Assembly: GCA_047651235.1 (NCBI GenBank)
Contig: CP178758.1
Location: forward strand, 1-32,000
DNA length: 32,000 nt
Source of the DNA: Candidatus Electrothrix yaqonensis
GTDB taxonomy: Bacteria > Desulfobacterota > Desulfobulbia > Desulfobulbales > Desulfobulbaceae
Direction of reading: 5' to 3'
The position numbers were made by a program, and so were the translations under genes. Positions 25,928 to 31,400 of the stretch are shown here, in pieces. Within the stretch, counting starts at the first letter, position 1, and the number at the start of each line of letters is the position of its first letter. The notes below the pieces were generated by a model. The model was given only the letters and a program-made list of their open reading frames with translations. It ran no database searches and was not told where the DNA came from.

Positions 25928-26677
25928 TCAGAAACTCACCCGGTCACCGGCAACCGGCAGCAGGGTGCCCGGCCTTTCCTGCACCATTTGTTTGATTGTA
26001 TTGATTTCGTTTTTCCGCACACTGTGTTCAATATGGACTAGGGCCACCTGGCCCACCTCTGTCTCATCCGCCAGGTTCAGGGTGCTGGTAATGGAGCCGT
26101 GATAGGGATAGGTATCGACCATATTGAATGATTCATGGATGACAAAATCGCACCCCTGAATCAGCTTTTTTACCTGGGTATTGGCCCGCCCGTCCCCGCT
26201 GTAGTACAGCCGTTTCGGACCGTCTTCAAGCAGCAGACCGAGGTTGTACTGGGTATGCTGGGTCAGGGCGGTGGACCATTGCATCCCGGCGATGGAAGCG
26301 GTCTCACGCGGAGAAATGACATGAAATTCAATAGGGAAGTTAATTTTTCTGCTGAACGTCGGATAGGCCATTTCCAGCAGTTCCATGGTTCTTTTTTCTA
26401 TCCCTTTCTGGCTGATGATCGGCAGAGGACGGGTACGGCCCATCTGCCAGAGACGAAGGAAAAGCAGGGGAAGGCCGAAGTAATGATCACCGTGATAATG
26501 CGAAATCCAGACATAGTCCAGCAGATGCGGATCCTCGATTGTCCGGAAGAAATGATGCGGCACAGTGAAGCCGCAGTCGAGCAATATTCTGGTGCCGTTG
26601 CTTGTTGTCAGCAGAGAAGAACTGTTTCCGTTGGCGGGATCGCAGGTCTCACCGACACCGAGAAAGAAAATTTCCAC
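25928..26677 (-). CDS. MBL-fold metallo-hydrolase (RNase Z/BN-like)
   Basis: HxHxDH is present as WISHYHGDHYFG. The N-terminus FLGVGE..LLDCG and the late DFVIHES block are also present. Confidence 0.8.
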   Translation of the reverse strand: MEIFFLGVGETCDPANGNSSSLLTTSNGTRILLDCGFTVPHHFFRTIEDPHLLDYVWISHYHGDHYFGLPLLFLRLWQMGRTRPLPIISQKGIEKRTMELLEMAYPTFSRKINFPIEFHVISPRETASIAGMQWSTALTQHTQYNLGLLLEDGPKRLYYSGDGRANTQVKKLIQGCDFVIHESFNMVDTYPYHGSITSTLNLADETEVGQVALVHIEHSVRKNEINTIKQMVQERPGTLLPVAGDRVSF

Positions 26678-26907: not shown

Positions 26908-27549
26908 TCAACCGGTAAAATCCGAACGTTTCGGAACGTCCGGAAACTCTGGGAAATCCGGGAAAAAGCTGTCTGCGGCATACCGGTCAACCTGTCTTTC
27001 CACTTCTTCCGGTGGAAAATCGAGAAAAGAAAACAGAGTTTTTTCCAGCTGTCCGCATCTGCTGAAGTTGTTCCGGATCTGCCTGTGGAGCTGTTCATCG
27101 TTTTTTCCGTACTTTTCCAGGATATATTCCAGCCGCTCCTCAAGAGGGACAATGGCATCGTGCCGCACCCTTTTGTCTGCGTAATAGACGATTTCCTGAG
27201 CCTGAAAAATACCCTGCGCATATCTGTCCGGCGCAAAATCCCGGAGCATCACATGCCTCCCTACAATTTCGGCTATTTCCGGATAACCGTGGCGCAGACA
27301 GATTGCAGCCCCGGCCTCGTCATGTCTGCAGCCTTTTTCCAGACAGGGGGTCTTGGCAATATCGTGGAGCAGGGCGCCGCTGACGCAGAGCTGCAAGTCA
27401 GGTGCAGAGGAAACGACAGAGCTGTGCTGCAGGCCGACAGCCAGCACTTCGGCAATGCGGGCAACCAGTAGAGAATGCCGCCGGATATTGGGCAGCATCG
27501 CATACTGGTCCATCAGGGCTGCGCAGGCAGCAGGGGCCGGAATCTTCAT
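26908..27549 (-). CDS. HD-domain phosphohydrolase family protein
   Basis: GALLHDIAK, HDEAG and the later GRHV..YYADKR are HD-superfamily features. I chose the start at MKIPAPAA (27549); the longer ORF from 27801 would overlap hemE. Confidence 0.75.
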   Translation of the reverse strand: MKIPAPAACAALMDQYAMLPNIRRHSLLVARIAEVLAVGLQHSSVVSSAPDLQLCVSGALLHDIAKTPCLEKGCRHDEAGAAICLRHGYPEIAEIVGRHVMLRDFAPDRYAQGIFQAQEIVYYADKRVRHDAIVPLEERLEYILEKYGKNDEQLHRQIRNNFSRCGQLEKTLFSFLDFPPEEVERQVDRYAADSFFPDFPEFPDVPKRSDFTG

Positions 27550-27577
27550 GCCGATTATGATCCCCTCTTCTTCCCTC

Positions 27578-28600
27578 TTATCTGCCGCTGAAACGATGAA
27601 CCGCGTCAACCGCAATTTTTGCCTGATCCGGATCAGTCTGCGGCAGAATGCCGTGCCCAAGATTGAAGATATGACCCTTGGCGTTCCGGGCATCATCAAG
27701 AAGAGTTTTGATGCGTTGTTCCAGCTCTTCCTTGGGCAGAAACAGGGCAATCGGGTCCAGATTGCCCTGCACCGCATGGTCGCCGACCATCTCGACCGCA
27801 TCGCCGATATTGATCCGCCAATCCAGCCCTAACACGTCGGCTCCGGCATTTTTCGTATGCCGGATTAATGTGGAACCGTTATTGGCAAAATAAATAATGG
27901 GGATATCGGTCATTTTTCGCAGATCAGCGATAATGGACTGGACATAGGGCAGAGCAAACCGTTCGTAATCGCAGGGTGCCCAGATACCGGCCCAGGAATC
28001 AAAAATCTGCAGGGCCTGAGCACCGGCGCGGGCCTGGGCCTGGAGGTAGATGCTGGTGCATTCGGTAATTTTCTGCAGCAGGGCATGATACATTGCCGGT
28101 TCCTGAAAGGCCATCCTCTTGGTTTCCAGAAAGACCTTGGAGGAACCGCCCTCAATCAGGTAGGTGGCCAAAGTGAACGGCGCACCGGAAAAACCGATCA
28201 GCGGCACCTTGAGTTCCTGTCGAAGCAGCCGGATGGTTTCCAGGACAAAAGGCATGGTTTCTTCCGGATCAGGAATACGCAGGCGGTCCACCGCAGCCTG
28301 CTCACGCACCGGATCAGGAAAAATCGGCCCCCTGCCCTCATGGAACTCCAGGGTCAGGCCCATTGCCTCCATAGGAATCAGGATATCGGAGAACAGAATG
28401 GCAGCGTCAAAGCCGAAGATATCAATGGGCTGCAGCGTGACCTCGGTGCAGAGTTCCGGGTTTTTGCACAGTTCCAGAAAAGTGCGTTTGCTGCGCACGG
28501 CCTGATACTCAGGCAGGTAGCGTCCGGCCTGCCGCATGAACCAGACCGGGGTATAGTCGGTCTGTTCGCCGCGACAGGCTTTGAGAAAGGTATCGTTCAT
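27578..28600 (-). CDS. hemE: Uroporphyrinogen decarboxylase
   Basis: The N-terminus PVWFMRQAGRYLPEY, the later blocks ILFSDIL, IGFSGAPFT, QIFDSWAG and FNLGHGI, and the length (340 aa) are all hallmarks of HemE. Confidence 0.93.
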   Translation of the reverse strand: MNDTFLKACRGEQTDYTPVWFMRQAGRYLPEYQAVRSKRTFLELCKNPELCTEVTLQPIDIFGFDAAILFSDILIPMEAMGLTLEFHEGRGPIFPDPVREQAAVDRLRIPDPEETMPFVLETIRLLRQELKVPLIGFSGAPFTLATYLIEGGSSKVFLETKRMAFQEPAMYHALLQKITECTSIYLQAQARAGAQALQIFDSWAGIWAPCDYERFALPYVQSIIADLRKMTDIPIIYFANNGSTLIRHTKNAGADVLGLDWRINIGDAVEMVGDHAVQGNLDPIALFLPKEELEQRIKTLLDDARNAKGHIFNLGHGILPQTDPDQAKIAVDAVHRFSGR

Positions 28601-29141
28601 TTAATTAACTATATATCTTCAAAAGAAATCAGGAGCCAAGGAGCTCGGCAGCTTTTCCGGCAATTGTTGAAGCAAGCGGATGATCAAGAAATTTGCGGAG
28701 GAGAGTCTTTGCTTCTTCCTTTTCCTGCGGGGTTGCATCGGCAGATTCGATAGCCTTGACTAACTCAGGAAGAGTTAATGTGTTATTGCTGCCAATAATG
28801 TTATTGACATTTGTCGAGTCGCTAATAGTTACCGTGTTGTTATTATGCTGCACAAATTTCACCTTTATATCAGGAGTTGCTACGCCTTCGACGACATCTA
28901 TGCCATAGGCGTTAATTTTCCCTAATCCGAAACTAATTTCTCCGAGTGAATCGTAATCAGTAAATTTAGATGCCGTCCACTTAAGAAGGTTATATTCACC
29001 TAACTGATCACACACTTGGAGTATGTCTTGTTCGTCAACTTCAACATCAAGATCAGCAGGTTTTGGCGCAGGCAGAGAACTTTTGCGCCGTCGATCGTAA
29101 TAGTACTGAAGAATAAGGCCTCTTAGTTCTGTATCGTTCAT
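28590..29141 (-). repeat. 11-nt direct repeat pair ATGAACGATAC: first codons of orf170 and of hemE are identical
   Basis: The plus-strand sequence GTATCGTTCAT occurs at 28590-28600 (hemE start) and 29131-29141 (orf170 start). Both proteins begin MNDT. Confidence 0.9.
28629..29141 (-). CDS. Orphan hypothetical protein (170 aa), low-GC, wedged between the radical-SAM gene and hemE
   Basis: The ORF is intact. AAGGAG lies 10 nt upstream, inside the 3' end of the radical-SAM gene. Only 6 bp and 28 bp separate it from its neighbours. I recognise no family. Composition is clearly AT-richer than its neighbours. Confidence 0.65.
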   Translation of the reverse strand: MNDTELRGLILQYYYDRRRKSSLPAPKPADLDVEVDEQDILQVCDQLGEYNLLKWTASKFTDYDSLGEISFGLGKINAYGIDVVEGVATPDIKVKFVQHNNNTVTISDSTNVNNIIGSNNTLTLPELVKAIESADATPQEKEEAKTLLRKFLDHPLASTIAGKAAELLGS

Positions 29142-29161
29142 AGGTTTTTAGCTCCTTGGCT
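28634..29161. repeat. Perfect 12-bp inverted repeat bracketing orf170
   Basis: AGCCAAGGAGCT at 28634-28645 is the reverse complement of AGCTCCTTGGCT at 29150-29161. With a 3-nt bulge the match extends by ATC/GAT. The 29150-29161 arm contains the orf170 Shine-Dalgarno on the minus strand. Confidence 0.9.
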
Positions 29162-30200
29162 GATAGGAACAAAAGGGTTCTTGGGCAAGATAATCACCGT
29201 TCATGGCATAGGCCCTGGCCCGGCAGCCGCCGCAGACATTAACGTATTCACAACGTCCGCAGTTATCTTTATACCCTTTGAAATCGCGAAGCTCCAGAAA
29301 AAGTTCGGAGTTTTCCCAGATATCCTGAAAAGACTGCTCCCGTATGTTGCCTCCGGCCTTGGGAAAATAGCTGCACGGCAGCACGTTGCCGTCCACATCG
29401 ATCAGGCAGATCAGCTGCCCGGCCAGGCAGCCCTTGGACCCGCCGGTGGAAAACTTCAGGCTTCTCCGTTTGAACTTTTCCCCCTCAGCCTTGGAGCGCT
29501 GGAGCACGATGCGGTAATACTGCGGCGCGCAGGTGGGGCGGACCAGCATATCCTGCTCCTCTTTTTCCATATCATAATGCCAGTTGAGCATGTCCTCGTA
29601 TTCCGCCTCCGGGATCAGCTCCTCCATGATCTCCTTGCCGCGTCCGGTCGGCACAATCATGAACAGGTACCAGGCGGTGGCGCCCAGCTCCTTGACCAAG
29701 GTATAAATCTTCGGTGCTTCTTCTTTATTGCGCTTGGTAAAGGAAGAATTGATCAGGAACGGGATGCCGTGTTCATTGAACAGGCGGATGGCGTTCATGG
29801 TGCCTGCAAAGGCGCCCGGCTGATTGCGGAAATTATCGTGTACCTCGGCTGTGGAACCGTCCAGGCTCAGCGACACCATCTTGATGCCTGCCTCTTTGAT
29901 CCTGCGGCAAATATCTTCGGTCACCAGGGTACCGTTGGTGGCCAGACACATGCGCAGCCCCAATTCGGTACCGTAGGAGGCGATATCAAACACATCAGAC
30001 CGCAGCAGTGGTTCCCCGCCGGAGAGCACCACCACCGGATCGGCATAGGATTTGATATCGTCCAGAACGCGCTTGGCTTCGTCAAAAGAAAAATCAGGAT
30101 GGCCTGCCGCTTCAAGCTCAGAGGAAGAACGGCAGTGGACACAGTTCAGATTGCAGCGCCGGGTGATTTCCCAGGCGATCCATTTCGGTTCAAAATCCAT
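29148..30200 (-). CDS. Radical SAM/SPASM protein, AhbD/AhbC/NirJ-like (haem-branch tetrapyrrole modification)
   Basis: The radical SAM motif is CNLNCVHC at the N-terminus ([16 protein letters not shown]). Also present are [30 protein letters not shown] and TCAPQYYR. The C-terminal SPASM cysteines are [18 protein letters not shown]. The subfamily call is from memory of family blocks, not from a search. Confidence 0.7.
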
Positions 30201-30248
30201 GTATTTTTTTGGGATGAAAAATGTTTGCGGAAACGATATAAAACCCCA

Positions 30249-30277
30249 ACTATATTCTTCCTGCAGAAAGGGGTCAA
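30249..30277 (-). promoter_or_regulatory. Sigma70-type promoter candidate for the radical-SAM/orf170/hemE/HD operon
   Basis: The minus strand reads TTGACC (30277-30272), a 17-nt spacer, then TATAGT (30254-30249). It lies ~45-50 nt upstream of the radical-SAM ATG at 30200. Confidence 0.45.
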
Positions 30278-30335
30278 CTGCTTTATTGGGGCAGCAGCTT
30301 CCCTATGTGTATCAGCGCGAGCGTACAGAGTATCC

Positions 30336-30345
30336 GGGGGGGGGG
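30336..30345. repeat. Homopolymeric G10 (C10 on the minus strand)
   Basis: Read directly. It sits between the islet gene terminators and the -35 of the predicted radical-SAM promoter. Confidence 0.95.
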
Positions 30346-30416
30346 CAGTCAGGCGGGATCAGCTGTTTTTGCAAAAAAATGGGGGTGACACGGATTCAAA
30401 TACTGTTGCCATGCAT

Positions 30417-30453
30417 CAAAAAAACCGGGTAACGCGCTAAGCACGTACCCGGT
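30417..30453 (-). terminator. Rho-independent terminator downstream of the 205-aa secreted protein gene
   Basis: On the minus strand, ACCGGGTA pairs with TACCCGGT (8 bp, plus 2 more bp across a 1-nt bulge). A run of 6-7 U follows (plus-strand A-run 30418-30424). Confidence 0.7.
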
Positions 30454-30470
30454 AGACTGGCCATAAAAAG

Positions 30471-30507
30471 AAAGAAGGGAAAGAAGGGCGCCAGGTATAA
30501 GCTGGCG
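30471..30507 (-). terminator. Second hairpin plus pyrimidine-rich tandem repeat just after the secreted-protein stop
   Basis: CGCCAG (30489-30494) pairs with CTGGCG (30502-30507) across a 7-nt loop. On the minus strand it is followed by CCCTTCTTT x2 (plus-strand AAAGAAGGG at 30471-30479 and 30480-30488) and then CTTTTTAT. Confidence 0.4.
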
Positions 30508-30533
30508 GTCCTTTTTAATCAGCAAGCCAACAT

Positions 30534-31151
30534 CTAATTACCAATAATTTTACAGCAAGTAGTGTAAAGCCATAGCTCCCCATACTCATCATTGTCTGAA
30601 GAGCACCCGTTATTGTCTTGCTGGACATCTAAATCATCGTTTGTTGTCTCAATGTCACCGTCATTCCGCTGACTGCATCCGGTATTTATCCAACCATCGT
30701 TACAGAACAATCCCCACGGATGATCATCGGCTCCCGGATTATCATATGTGGTAAAGACTTCAAAGGGATCACTTATCGAAATATTCATCTGGTTCGTAAT
30801 CTCAGGAGCATTCATAGAACCACCAATAAACATTCCTGTAACGCAGGCCAGTTGAGGCTCCGGTATACGAAGATCATCTAACCGCTTTTTAAGAGCTTCA
30901 ATCTCATCTTTGTTCTGCGCGATATCGTCTTTGTTTGCCTTGATATCACCTTCATGTCTGGCGGCTGTCTCCTCTAAAGCCTCAACACGCTTCTTAAGAC
31001 CTGGAAGGTCCCCAATCTGGGCTTTGATATCCGCAATATCAGCTATATTCTGGTCTACATCCTGTCTTACTCCAGATAACGCGTTGGAGCCCGAAAGAAT
31101 TAATACAGAGATGCCGATCAAGCCGCCTATAAAAAAATTTGCCTTTTTCAT
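30534..31151 (-). CDS. Orphan secreted or anchored protein: signal/anchor - coiled coil - Cys-rich acidic C-terminal domain (205 aa)
   Basis: I prefer the start MKKANFFIGGLIGISVLILSG (31151), which has AAAGGA 8 nt upstream; an ATG at 31160 is the alternative. The heptad-rich segment is DIADIKAQIGDLPGLKKRVEALEE..IEALKKRLDDL. The C-terminal ~110 aa has 7 Cys and many Asp/Asn. I recognise no family. Confidence 0.6.
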   Translation of the reverse strand: MKKANFFIGGLIGISVLILSGSNALSGVRQDVDQNIADIADIKAQIGDLPGLKKRVEALEETAARHEGDIKANKDDIAQNKDEIEALKKRLDDLRIPEPQLACVTGMFIGGSMNAPEITNQMNISISDPFEVFTTYDNPGADDHPWGLFCNDGWINTGCSQRNDGDIETTNDDLDVQQDNNGCSSDNDEYGELWLYTTCCKIIGN

Positions 31152-31392: not shown

Positions 31393-31400
31393 GGGGGGGG
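31393..31400. repeat. Homopolymeric G8 fused to AGGA, upstream of (or inside) the 147-aa membrane protein ORF
   Basis: GGGGGGGGAGGA is read directly at 31393-31404. It lies 22 nt upstream of the ATG at 31422 and inside the longer GTG-initiated ORF from 31326. Confidence 0.95.

Follow-up and report, generated by a model that had tools for sequence, protein, structure and literature searches.

An AT-rich single-gene cassette in the heme operon of a cable bacterium encodes a predicted winged-helix protein from a family with a RHIM-like motif

Introduction

How did a small, AT-rich gene come to lie inside a heme operon of a cable bacterium, and what might its product do there? The question is raised by orf170, an intact open reading frame (ORF) of 170 codons on the minus strand (28629-29141) of the first 32,000 nucleotides of contig CP178758.1 of Candidatus Electrothrix yaqonensis (GenBank assembly GCA_047651235.1). 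This whole stretch is referred to as the window, and the strain carrying it is labeled YB6, after Candidatus Electrothrix sp. YB6, whose metagenome-assembled genome has an NCBI protein 100% identical to the orf170 product. On the minus strand, a radical SAM/SPASM gene (the rSAM gene), orf170, hemE, and an HD-domain gene follow one another (Table 1). The first-pass annotation, made from the letters of the window, had read orf170 as an orphan gene on a foreign segment of ~530 bp that entered the first codons of hemE, duplicated 11 nt, captured the initiation signals of hemE, and might have its own translation gated by a 12-nt pairing. A comparison of ~90 related loci supports the insertion and points to different causes for the other features. 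At the level of the locus, it is very probable that orf170 is an AT-rich cassette gained, lost, and swapped in a hypervariable slot. Our overall account adds that the exchanged cassette encodes a member of a winged-helix/RHIM-like family with an amyloid-type switch, probably serving in conflict or defense, and we give it a probability of about 0.62.

Occupancy of the rSAM-hemE slot

Eighty hemE loci were fetched from species-representative genomes of the Desulfobulbaceae and related Desulfobulbales, and the rSAM gene, orf170, hemE, and the HD gene were mapped on each of them (labels such as L009, L014, and L174 denote the related loci compared). The order rSAM-hemE-HD is kept in 78 of the 80, which include Desulfobulbus, Desulfogranum, many metagenome-assembled genomes, Electrothrix, and Electronema, and in 66 of them the rSAM gene and hemE are separated by a spacer of 0-250 nt that holds no orf170. 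The gene is confined to part of the cable-bacterial clades, and the non-cable Desulfobulbaceae examined have the operon without it; direct adjacency of the rSAM gene and hemE appears to be the ancestral state in the Desulfobulbaceae. Filled slots are found in YB6, in the Electrothrix-like loci L172, L174, and L093, in 'Desulfobulbus sp. TB' (L009), in Electronema V4, JM, aureum, and halotolerans, and in L010. Empty ones are found in Electrothrix gigas (L014), another Electrothrix (L013), and Electronema PJ, JC, and KV.

Occupancy differs even between cable bacteria whose flanks are 93-96% identical. When the filled locus L174 is aligned with the empty locus of Electrothrix gigas, the flanks are 96% identical; homology stops at …CCAAGGAA, within the final codons of the rSAM gene, and restarts at the hemE ATG, with 542 bp in between in the former and 83 unrelated bp in the latter. 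The same break-and-resume pattern is obtained when the filled locus of Electronema V4 is compared with JC, PJ, and L028. Such differences between near-identical flanks, together with the 66 loci devoid of orf170, bear out the proposal that a foreign segment was inserted between the rSAM gene and hemE. Since L027 and L028 hold other AT-rich cargo at the same place, the slot is a hypervariable site that gathers AT-rich single genes: orf170, two unrelated genes, or short spacers. The L027 cargo (L027:2708-3406) is an AT-rich 232-aa ORF of no obvious family with a G+C content at third codon positions (GC3) of 0.31, and that of L028 (L028:2945-3418; GC3 0.37) is an AT-rich, Cys-rich, and internally repeated 157-aa ORF whose N-terminus, read by eye from the sequence, is a hydrophobic, signal-like segment.

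In Electronema halotolerans (L003:3940-4000) and in GCA_976560315 (L010:3960-4000), the rSAM gene is no longer upstream, its place being taken by P-II/Amt or panB. Both loci still have a remnant of the rSAM 3' end, with its AGGAG, ahead of orf170. In Electronema halotolerans it amounts to the last ~50 nt (…TATCAGCCAAGGAGCTGA), which implies that rSAM-orf170-hemE was the earlier arrangement there.

The sequences in other slots have features of their own. The rSAM-hemE spacers of L034, L038, L040, and L068, all from one Desulfobulbaceae sub-clade, contain tandem 8-nt repeats (GCGTTTAA / GCGTTTGA / GCGTTCAA). Some empty cable-bacterial slots contain GC-rich hairpins (L014:3430-3450; the spacers of L016, L023, and L032), for example GGATACGGCATGCCGTGTCC straight after the rSAM stop codon, and these may be terminators, attenuators, or repetitive extragenic palindromic (REP)-like elements.

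Composition and allele exchange

The G+C content of orf170 is 0.429 and its GC3 0.374, compared with 0.550 and 0.639 for hemE and 0.549 and 0.684 for the rSAM gene. The marked AT-richness recorded in the first-pass annotation is thus real, and the contrast is found in every orthologue, with GC3 values of 0.30-0.45 versus 0.54-0.78 in the neighboring genes regardless of host GC3.

Sliding-window identity between L172 and L174 is 93-100% from the last ~230 nt of the rSAM gene through the first ~290 nt of orf170, compared with 80-85% in the flanks and ~70% in the 3' third of orf170. For L174 and L009 the pattern is inverted, the flanks being 93-97% identical and the 5' half of orf170 just 61-63%. 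The synonymous divergence (dS) of orf170 is likewise uncoupled from that of hemE, and in both directions. It is lower than that of hemE for YB6 versus L172 (0.36 versus 1.37) and L172 versus L174 (0.26 versus 0.86), and higher for L174 versus L009 (0.63 versus 0.39) and L010 versus L003 (0.85 versus 0.46). The orf170 tree matches the hemE tree only roughly. From the mosaic identity tracts and the decoupled dS, we infer that cable-bacterial lineages have swapped alleles through homologous recombination in the conserved genes on either side, with repeated loss or replacement. The dN/dS ratio of 0.2-0.4 indicates that orf170 is a real, functional gene under purifying selection.

As a physical unit, the cassette comprises orf170 and an adjoining 3' spacer of ~25 nt, ~545 bp of AT-rich DNA in all, with no transposase, target-site duplication, or terminal repeats. 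The spacer (TGATYTYYYTGAAR…) is conserved between the Electrothrix and Electronema copies and is part of it. Scans against Pfam, phrog, PADLOC, and NCBIfam found no transposase domain in orf170, and the comparisons of filled with empty sites contain no duplicated junction. An integron-type cassette with an attC site was considered and rejected, as there is no integrase nearby and the repeat arms described below lie in coding sequence and are not conserved.

Could orf170 instead be an old, vertically inherited resident of the cable-bacterial heme operon, repeatedly lost, whose product is a winged-helix regulator of ahbD/hemE expression? It occupies the same position in Electrothrix and Electronema, it stays linked to the hemE-HD block and to the metallo-β-lactamase (MBL)-fold and OmpA-family genes beyond it even where another gene lies upstream, the top-level split of its tree roughly follows that of the hemE tree, and the fold predicted for it is of a DNA-binding type. 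Vertical descent is nevertheless difficult to reconcile with mosaic tracts and with dS values decoupled from those of hemE both ways, with different occupancy between flanks that are 93-96% identical, and with the replacement of orf170 by unrelated genes. Its low GC3 persists with no amelioration, no family member below ~55% identity lies near a heme gene, and the non-cable Desulfobulbaceae examined manage without it. We consider such a resident regulator improbable.

The sporadic distribution and the boundaries that coincide exactly with conserved-gene ends could also reflect a selfish, homing-type gene that targets conserved-gene junctions (ahbD|hemE, dnaK|groES) and spreads by break-induced copying, particularly as 7 metagenomic loci have a member at a second, unrelated junction of conserved genes, dnaK->X->groES/groEL, and the predicted N-terminal domain is of a DNA-binding type. 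Library scans, however, recovered no nuclease domain or motif. The acceptance of unrelated cargo suggests a permissive site and not a targeting gene, and where only the genes are conserved, boundaries will in any case fall at gene ends. Homing is accordingly very unlikely, and exchange by recombination in the flanks is the reading retained here.

Shared start sequence and initiation signals

As the first-pass annotation noted, orf170 and hemE open with the same 11 nt (MNDT): ATGAACGATAC is present exactly twice in the window, at 29131-29141 and 28590-28600, and both occurrences are gene starts. Each start belongs to its own family. The hemE start ATGAAYGAYAC (MNDTFL…) is found in almost all of the 80 loci, whether orf170 is present or not, and the orf170 family has the N-terminus MKD[STN]ELRG, with M1 invariant and D3 and R7 nearly so, also in soil and freshwater members far from hemE. 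Asn at position 2 likewise occurs in distant members of the family. Because MNDTFL and MKD[STN]ELRG are intrinsic to the respective families, the likeness of the two starts has unrelated causes. The full 11/11 match is restricted to YB6, other filled loci reaching 9-10/11 at best. In the closest relatives of YB6, orf170 starts with ATGAAAGACAC and hemE with ATGAATGATAC, a 9/11 match, which two substitutions of the YB6 lineage, AAA->AAC and GAC->GAT, complete. Micro gene conversion between the two starts may have produced these changes, yet the usual mechanisms need more than an interrupted homology of 9 nt, and two chance substitutions are enough. With the match perfect in YB6 only, the N-termini intrinsic to both families, and no duplicated junction, the 11 nt cannot be taken as a target-site duplication. 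It had further been expected that an empty site would hold a single ATGAACGATAC right after the rSAM stop codon; hemE does keep its own start there, which is trivial, but 15-113 nt of unrelated spacer lie between the two.

The presence of an AAGGAG (29152-29157) embedded in the last rSAM codons, 10 nt ahead of the orf170 ATG, was also correctly noted, and it plausibly acts as the Shine-Dalgarno (SD) sequence of orf170: in 9/10 filled loci the rSAM gene ends with RAGGAG or AAGGAA in its final codons, at 5-10 nt from the ATG of orf170. We had considered an AGG Arg codon at the rSAM end as a marker of a downstream gene, but the two are only partly correlated, AGG or AGA being also present in empty or differently filled sites (L014, L023, L027, and L028), and this codon is not used as evidence. 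Equally correct is that hemE is preceded by a 28-nt spacer (14% GC) with no SD. The capture of the hemE initiation signals by orf170 does not follow from this, because empty Electrothrix-side sites (L012, L014, L015, L017, and L019) likewise have an A/T-rich leader before hemE and no SD.

Inverted repeat around orf170

The exact 12-bp inverted repeat that brackets orf170, AGCCAAGGAGCT / AGCTCCTTGGCT at 28634-28645 and 29150-29161, is indeed present. It is unexceptional in the window, which holds four exact inverted repeats of at least 12 nt with arms 200-600 nt apart (I1, I3, I12, and I16). Both arms are coding, one specifying Q-P-R-S-stop of the rSAM gene and the other E-L-L-G-S of orf170 (LLGS*); the C-terminal 'LLG' is also present in distant family members and thus predates the insertion. 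The part of the earlier proposal that holds is that the SD region can pair with the last codons of orf170, as the helix between the SD and the 3' arm is present in both the minimum-free-energy and the centroid folds of the 620-nt YB6 transcript, which overall has no unusual degree of structure (whole-transcript z = -0.68). The pairing is 12/12 in YB6 alone. In the same register it is 9-11/12 elsewhere, including G-U pairs and usually a central G·G mismatch, and in L174 (an Electrothrix AUS3-like allele), which has a different C-terminus, the 3' arm is absent. The variation is one-sided and falls mainly on third codon positions; compensatory pairs are absent among the filled sites, and in 8/10 loci the SD region forms its best duplex with another segment. 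The perfect repeat is a lineage-specific outcome of CTG->CTC and GGG->GAG and not a feature of the cassette. Gating by SD/anti-SD pairing does not stand as a conserved feature, since the conserved, covarying pairing of a cis-acting SD-sequestering switch is not found among the filled loci; an effect of the pairing on translation specific to YB6 may exist. A weak hairpin that resembles a terminator, GAGC-TCCT-TGGCTC with a U-rich run after it (window 28633-28646), overlaps the 3' arm of the repeat and might attenuate read-through into hemE.

Taken as a whole, the model of a ~530-bp segment inserted into the first codons of hemE, with an 11-nt duplication, captured signals, and gated translation, draws on an 11-mer and an inverted repeat that are both exact in YB6, on a long-range helix in both folds, and on two start substitutions that both go toward the hemE sequence. 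The comparison speaks against it: the starts match imperfectly at all other filled sites, the junctions carry no duplication, empty sites of the same clade have no hemE SD either, the repeat arms do not lie at the ends of the variable segment, and the pairing is imperfect or absent and uncompensated. It retains only a very slight probability. Exact direct and inverted repeats here mimicked the scars of transposition and a riboregulator, and the comparison of related loci resolves them into strain-specific coincidences over coding constraints.

Protein family and predicted fold

Searches of orf170 against Pfam, NCBIfam, and PADLOC returned nothing significant, and its only library match is phrog_16834 (E 2.4e-8), an entry with no assigned function that aligns with the C-terminal module. 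The protein is not an orphan, as had been thought. Its relatives numbered 45 in a word-indexed search, the most distant at 33% identity, and 125 in a metagenome scan. A profile search of 1.84 billion representatives reached 1,092 clusters (50% identity) at E ≤ 1e-3, 122 of them at E ≤ 1e-30, and the family thus comprises at least 1,092 clusters at 50% identity. Nearly all of the top profile matches listed are stand-alone proteins of 155-180 residues.

AlphaFold2, run with a 71-sequence alignment, predicts the structure with an overall predicted local distance difference test (pLDDT) score of 85. The score is 96-98 over most of a winged helix of residues 1-95, ~41 in residues 100-120, and 83-95 in the C-terminal helices (residues 121-168). 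A first model had placed two short β-hairpins in the central stretch, for which a deeper alignment predicts disorder. The predicted N-terminal domain has the H-H-H-β-β order of a winged helix, and the top 50 Foldseek matches in the PDB are overwhelmingly winged-helix proteins (PadR, AF1382, MarR, and Fur) with probabilities of 0.9-1.0 and a template-modeling (TM) score of up to 0.61 on the target. The N-terminus of orf170 is thus predicted to be a winged-helix, DNA-binding-type fold of the PadR/MarR kind.

Among 18 cable-bacterial orthologues, identity is 71% in residues 1-56, 23% in 57-73, 72% in 74-95, 83% in 96-124, and 74% in 125-153. The wing loop (residues 57-73; window 28925-28975) is hypervariable and, besides its low identity as against 71-83% elsewhere, varies in length; it could be a specificity determinant under diversifying selection.

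The motif and the C-terminal module are also found behind other N-terminal domains, including in a phage protein. Temperate Cronobacter phage ENT39118 encodes a 164-aa protein with the motif SNVQIGNHNQM and the C-terminal module, and its gene, on the opposite strand, has the Q antiterminator on one side and the lysis genes on the other, the classic position of a moron.

RHIM-like central motif

The central motif of the family has the consensus [IV]x[IV]xxSxN[VI]Q[IV]G[DN]xNxQ, and the most recurrent Pfam match of the family is RHIM (PF12721), obtained for 23/71 members at E ≤ 10 and for 5/71 at E ≤ 0.01 (best 5.3e-7). Members inspected individually score 10-17 bits, most of the scores in the family are under the 20-bit gathering score of the Pfam model, and Pfam HET-S gives only two weak matches among the 71. 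We built a 26-position motif profile from 36 non-cable members only and ran it against 177,635 distinct PDB sequences. The top matches are RHIM cores only: RIPK1 (E 1.2e-4), RIPK3 (7e-4 to 1e-3), and an HSV ICP6-like sequence (0.044). In a typical alignment, 'initgSsNVqiGnnNtQn' is placed against YTIFNSSGIQIGNHNYMD and VNIYNCSGVQVGDNNYLTMQQ. A reversed control profile gave no match at E ≤ 10, and the best match of a column-shuffled one was an unrelated protein at E 0.61. The similarity extends beyond the tetrad over 18-21 positions (I-x-x-x-S-S-G/N-V-Q-I-G-N-x-N), and at the family level the (I/V)-Q-(I/V)-G-x-x-N core is accompanied by flanking similarity to RIPK1 and RIPK3. By sequence comparison, the family motif appears to resemble the RHIM amyloid core specifically.

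In orf170, the positional counterpart of this RHIM-matching motif is residues 96-124, the most conserved stretch of the cable-bacterial orthologues. The cable-bacterial motif (STNVNNIIGSNNTLTL) is diverged, having lost the Q and gained a 3-residue insertion, and scores 12.8-15.3 bits with the family motif hidden Markov model (HMM). Every match of this HMM in 170+ loci is itself a family member, some loci carrying tandem duplicates, and across the whole window no protein other than orf170 has the motif.

A more ordinary reading is that the central stretch is an Asn/Gly-rich β-hairpin linker, its likeness to RHIM convergent, in a winged-helix transcription factor or nucleoid-associated protein encoded on accessory DNA. 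The two hairpins of the first AlphaFold2 model would suit such a linker, as would the failure of the YB6 motif with RHIM models, the absence of a partner protein with the motif in the loci scanned, and the many family matches below the Pfam gathering score. It accounts poorly for a profile that, with clean controls, singles out RHIM cores among all PDB sequences searched and matches them over 18-21 positions; for a motif that is the best conserved part of the cable-bacterial orthologues; for the disorder predicted by the deeper alignment; and for the recombination of the motif and C-terminal module with different N-domains. We regard the linker as possible but doubtful, and a RHIM-like motif remains the preferred reading. 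Amyloid signaling motifs are typically disordered in the monomer.

Genomic context of the family

Copies with at least 56% identity are all hemE-linked and cable-bacterial, and the more distant copies are all elsewhere. The neighbors of the distant copies include AIPR, DUF4145, DUF2971, CAP12/Pycsar-type TIR, ThsB-type TIR, SLFN/AlbA_2, and GmrSD genes, as well as a DEAD-helicase/MZB giant and an IS110 transposase, and these neighborhoods look like defense islands, judging by the gene content. In seven metagenome loci (L113, L119, L121, L125, L126, L133, and L135), a member follows dnaK at a distance of 21-27 nt and precedes groES-groEL, and tandem pairs of members are found at L125 and at L133/L134. 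One report describes disassembly of RHIM amyloids by mammalian Hsp70 (HSPA8) (PMC10624691). The adjacency to dnaK may be meaningful, or dnaK-groES may be just another conserved-gene junction used as a landing site.

Owing to this genomic company, a role in conflict or defense is preferred to one in heme metabolism. A heme-related role for orf170 was considered and set aside, given the patchy occupancy and the exchange of the slot cargo for unrelated genes.

Discussion

Proteins joining nucleic-acid recognition to a RHIM are known in animals. ZBP1 carries one or more winged-helix Zα nucleic-acid-binding domains plus a RHIM, and the order of a winged helix followed by a RHIM-like motif recurs in the orf170 family, whose profile aligns with the RIPK1 and RIPK3 cores over 18-21 residues. 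Unlike the ZBP1/RIPK1/RIPK3 proteins, orf170 has no kinase, Foldseek relates its predicted fold to PadR, MarR, and AF1382 and not to Zα, and the motif of YB6 is diverged.

Among bacterial systems, BASS3 is a RHIM-like motif on Bell-domain effectors paired with NLR-like receptors, and BASS systems have been described mainly in filamentous or multicellular bacteria (10.1101/2020.01.06.895854). The orf170 family is similar in having a short G-Φ-Q-Φ-G-type motif, akin to the metazoan RHIM, in a small protein, beside a helical domain, and cable bacteria are filamentous too. It differs in that there is no Bell domain, the N-terminus is a predicted winged helix, and the motif is central instead of terminal. 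Furthermore, no adjacent NLR or other gene with a matching motif accompanies the family, which is widespread in soil and freshwater metagenomes and present in a phage. Bab/Agp is a two-gene abortive-infection system of E. coli whose proteins share BASS11, with the hydrophobic helix of Bab N-terminal and its amyloid motif C-terminal (10.1101/2024.11.07.622273). Like Bab, orf170 is a small protein that joins a helical module with a hydrophobic helix to an amyloid-type motif (in orf170 by similarity only), and both systems are associated with defense islands or prophage hotspots. The order is reversed in orf170, where the motif precedes the hydrophobic helix, and there is no PADLOC match. With no Bell domain, no motif-bearing partner, and a central motif, orf170 falls outside both the Bell/NLR and the Bab/Agp systems.

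As a locus, the slot resembles the islets and morons of other genomes: an AT-rich single ORF with no mobility gene, presumably expressed by read-through from the host operon, with presence/absence and allele replacement between close genomes and a phage homologue in a moron position. It is unusual for an islet in lying inside a housekeeping heme operon, with its putative SD in the upstream gene and at least 3 unrelated cargos in the slot. The likeness to an insertion sequence (IS) or transposon is superficial, consisting of the 11-nt direct and 12-nt inverted repeats around the YB6 gene; these repeats do not mark the ends of the variable segment and are not conserved in other copies, and there is no transposase. 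The locus is thus a new variation on the accessory-gene islet, and the protein one on the bacterial proteins that carry RHIM-like motifs.

We propose the following mechanism by analogy with RHIM and BASS amyloid signaling (ZBP1-RIPK3, HET-S, and Bab/Agp). orf170 would be transcribed by read-through from an operon promoter ahead of the rSAM gene and translated from the AGGAG within the last rSAM codons. Its N-terminal winged helix would bind nucleic acid or another cue, the central RHIM-like motif would then drive cooperative self-assembly, and the assembly would activate or concentrate the helical module at the C-terminus, a module ending in a hydrophobic, Gly-rich helix. As a function of the family, an amyloid switch acting in conflict is a tentative suggestion, and for the diverged YB6 allele it is more tentative still. 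It is rather unlikely, though worth stating, that the family as a whole is a hitherto unrecognized class of single-chain amyloid switches, each combining a winged-helix or other sensor, a RHIM-like polymerization motif, and a small helical effector, a prokaryotic counterpart of the ZBP1-type RHIM proteins, used for phage defense, counter-defense, or addiction, and that the diverged cable-bacterial allele is its recombining cassette in the heme operon, with the wing loop setting specificity.

Several observations weigh against the overall account. The Foldseek E-values of the winged-helix matches are weak (0.01-0.1; best 0.014) despite probabilities of 0.9-1.0. The YB6 protein itself has no Pfam RHIM match at E ≤ 10 and scores a sub-threshold 12.9 bits with the family motif HMM, which, applied to the six-frame ORFs of 170+ loci (1.24 M residues), found no partner gene with a matching motif. 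A search of PADLOC-DB v2 gave 0 families at E ≤ 1, and many members lie in non-defense contexts (dnaK/groES, isocitrate lyase, and transporters). With regard to the locus, the AT-rich codon usage of orf170 could bias the dS comparison; the AGG codon at the rSAM end is also present in loci lacking orf170 (L014, L027, and L028), leaving its role in the SD plausible; and both the promoter and the operon structure derive purely from consensus scans.

What the locus offers in the first place is a single-gene slot in an otherwise invariant heme operon, a useful marker of recombination in uncultured multicellular cable bacteria. Beyond the locus, a large unannotated family joins a predicted winged helix to a RHIM-like motif and is found in defense-island-like neighborhoods and in the moron position of a phage. 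If the motif forms signaling amyloids, bacterial amyloid signaling would extend beyond Bell/NLR and Bab/Agp to a one-protein architecture, and the family would bear on whether RHIM is of deep origin or convergent.

Features of the locus

The positions of the features are collected in Table 1. Within 27400-30600, a consensus scan found a sole sigma-70-like site, at 30277-30249 upstream of the rSAM gene, which suggests a promoter of a single rSAM-orf170-hemE-HD operon transcript.

Table 1 Features of the rSAM-orf170-hemE region in the YB6 window, in transcriptional order.
Feature	Position	Strand	Remarks
Sigma-70-like promoter candidate, TTGACC-17-TATAGT	30249-30277	-	Upstream of the rSAM gene; consensus match only
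AhbD-like radical SAM/SPASM gene (heme b synthase-like)	29148-30200	-	Pfam Radical_SAM and SPASM; conserved left flank of the slot
Inverted repeat, upstream arm, mRNA AGCCAAGGAGCU	29150-29161		Overlaps the SD and the rSAM stop codon
Putative Shine-Dalgarno sequence of orf170, AAGGAG	29152-29157	-	In the final rSAM codons CCA AGG AGC TAA
ATGAACGATAC, opening 11 nt of orf170 (MNDT)	29131-29141	-	
orf170 residues 1-95, predicted winged helix-turn-helix domain	28857-29141	-	AlphaFold2 and Foldseek; hypervariable wing loop at residues 57-73
orf170 residues 96-124 (FVQHNNNTVTISDSTNVNNIIGSNNTLTL), diverged RHIM-like motif	28770-28856	-	Predicted to be disordered in the monomer
orf170 residues 125-170, predicted three-helix C-terminal module (…PQEKEEAKxLLRKFLxHPL…)	28632-28769	-	Ends in a Gly/Ala-rich hydrophobic helix
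Inverted repeat, downstream arm, mRNA AGCUCCUUGGCU	28634-28645		In orf170 codons E-L-L-G-S
28-nt AT-rich spacer, traveling with the cassette	28601-28628	-	TGATYTYYYTGAAR… motif kept in Electrothrix and Electronema copies
hemE (uroporphyrinogen decarboxylase)	27578-28600	-	TIGR01464, 441 bits, above cut-off; ATGAACGATAC at 28590-28600; conserved right flank of the slot

The rSAM protein scores 443 bits against NCBIfam TIGR04545 (AhbD), under the 500-bit cut-off. AhbD converts Fe-coproporphyrin to heme b. Across the Desulfobulbaceae, the AhbD-like rSAM gene (window 29148-30200) stands in an operon with hemE (window 27578-28600), a pairing that hints at a hybrid heme pathway.

No second copy of orf170 is present in the 32-kb window, and an Rfam scan of 27000-31000 returned only a sub-threshold archaeal snoRNA model, which we take as noise. 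The block downstream of hemE-HD contains an MBL-fold gene (25928-26677) that matches Pfam Anti-Pycsar_Apyc1 (PF23023) and Lactamase_B; an equivalent is present in L001, L003, L010, and L172, and an OmpA-family gene comes next. A run of ten G (G10; C10 when read on the coding strand) occupies 30336-30345 and precedes the promoter-like site of the rSAM operon by ~60 nt, and a second run, G8, lies at 31393-31400; both are possible slippage-prone tracts.

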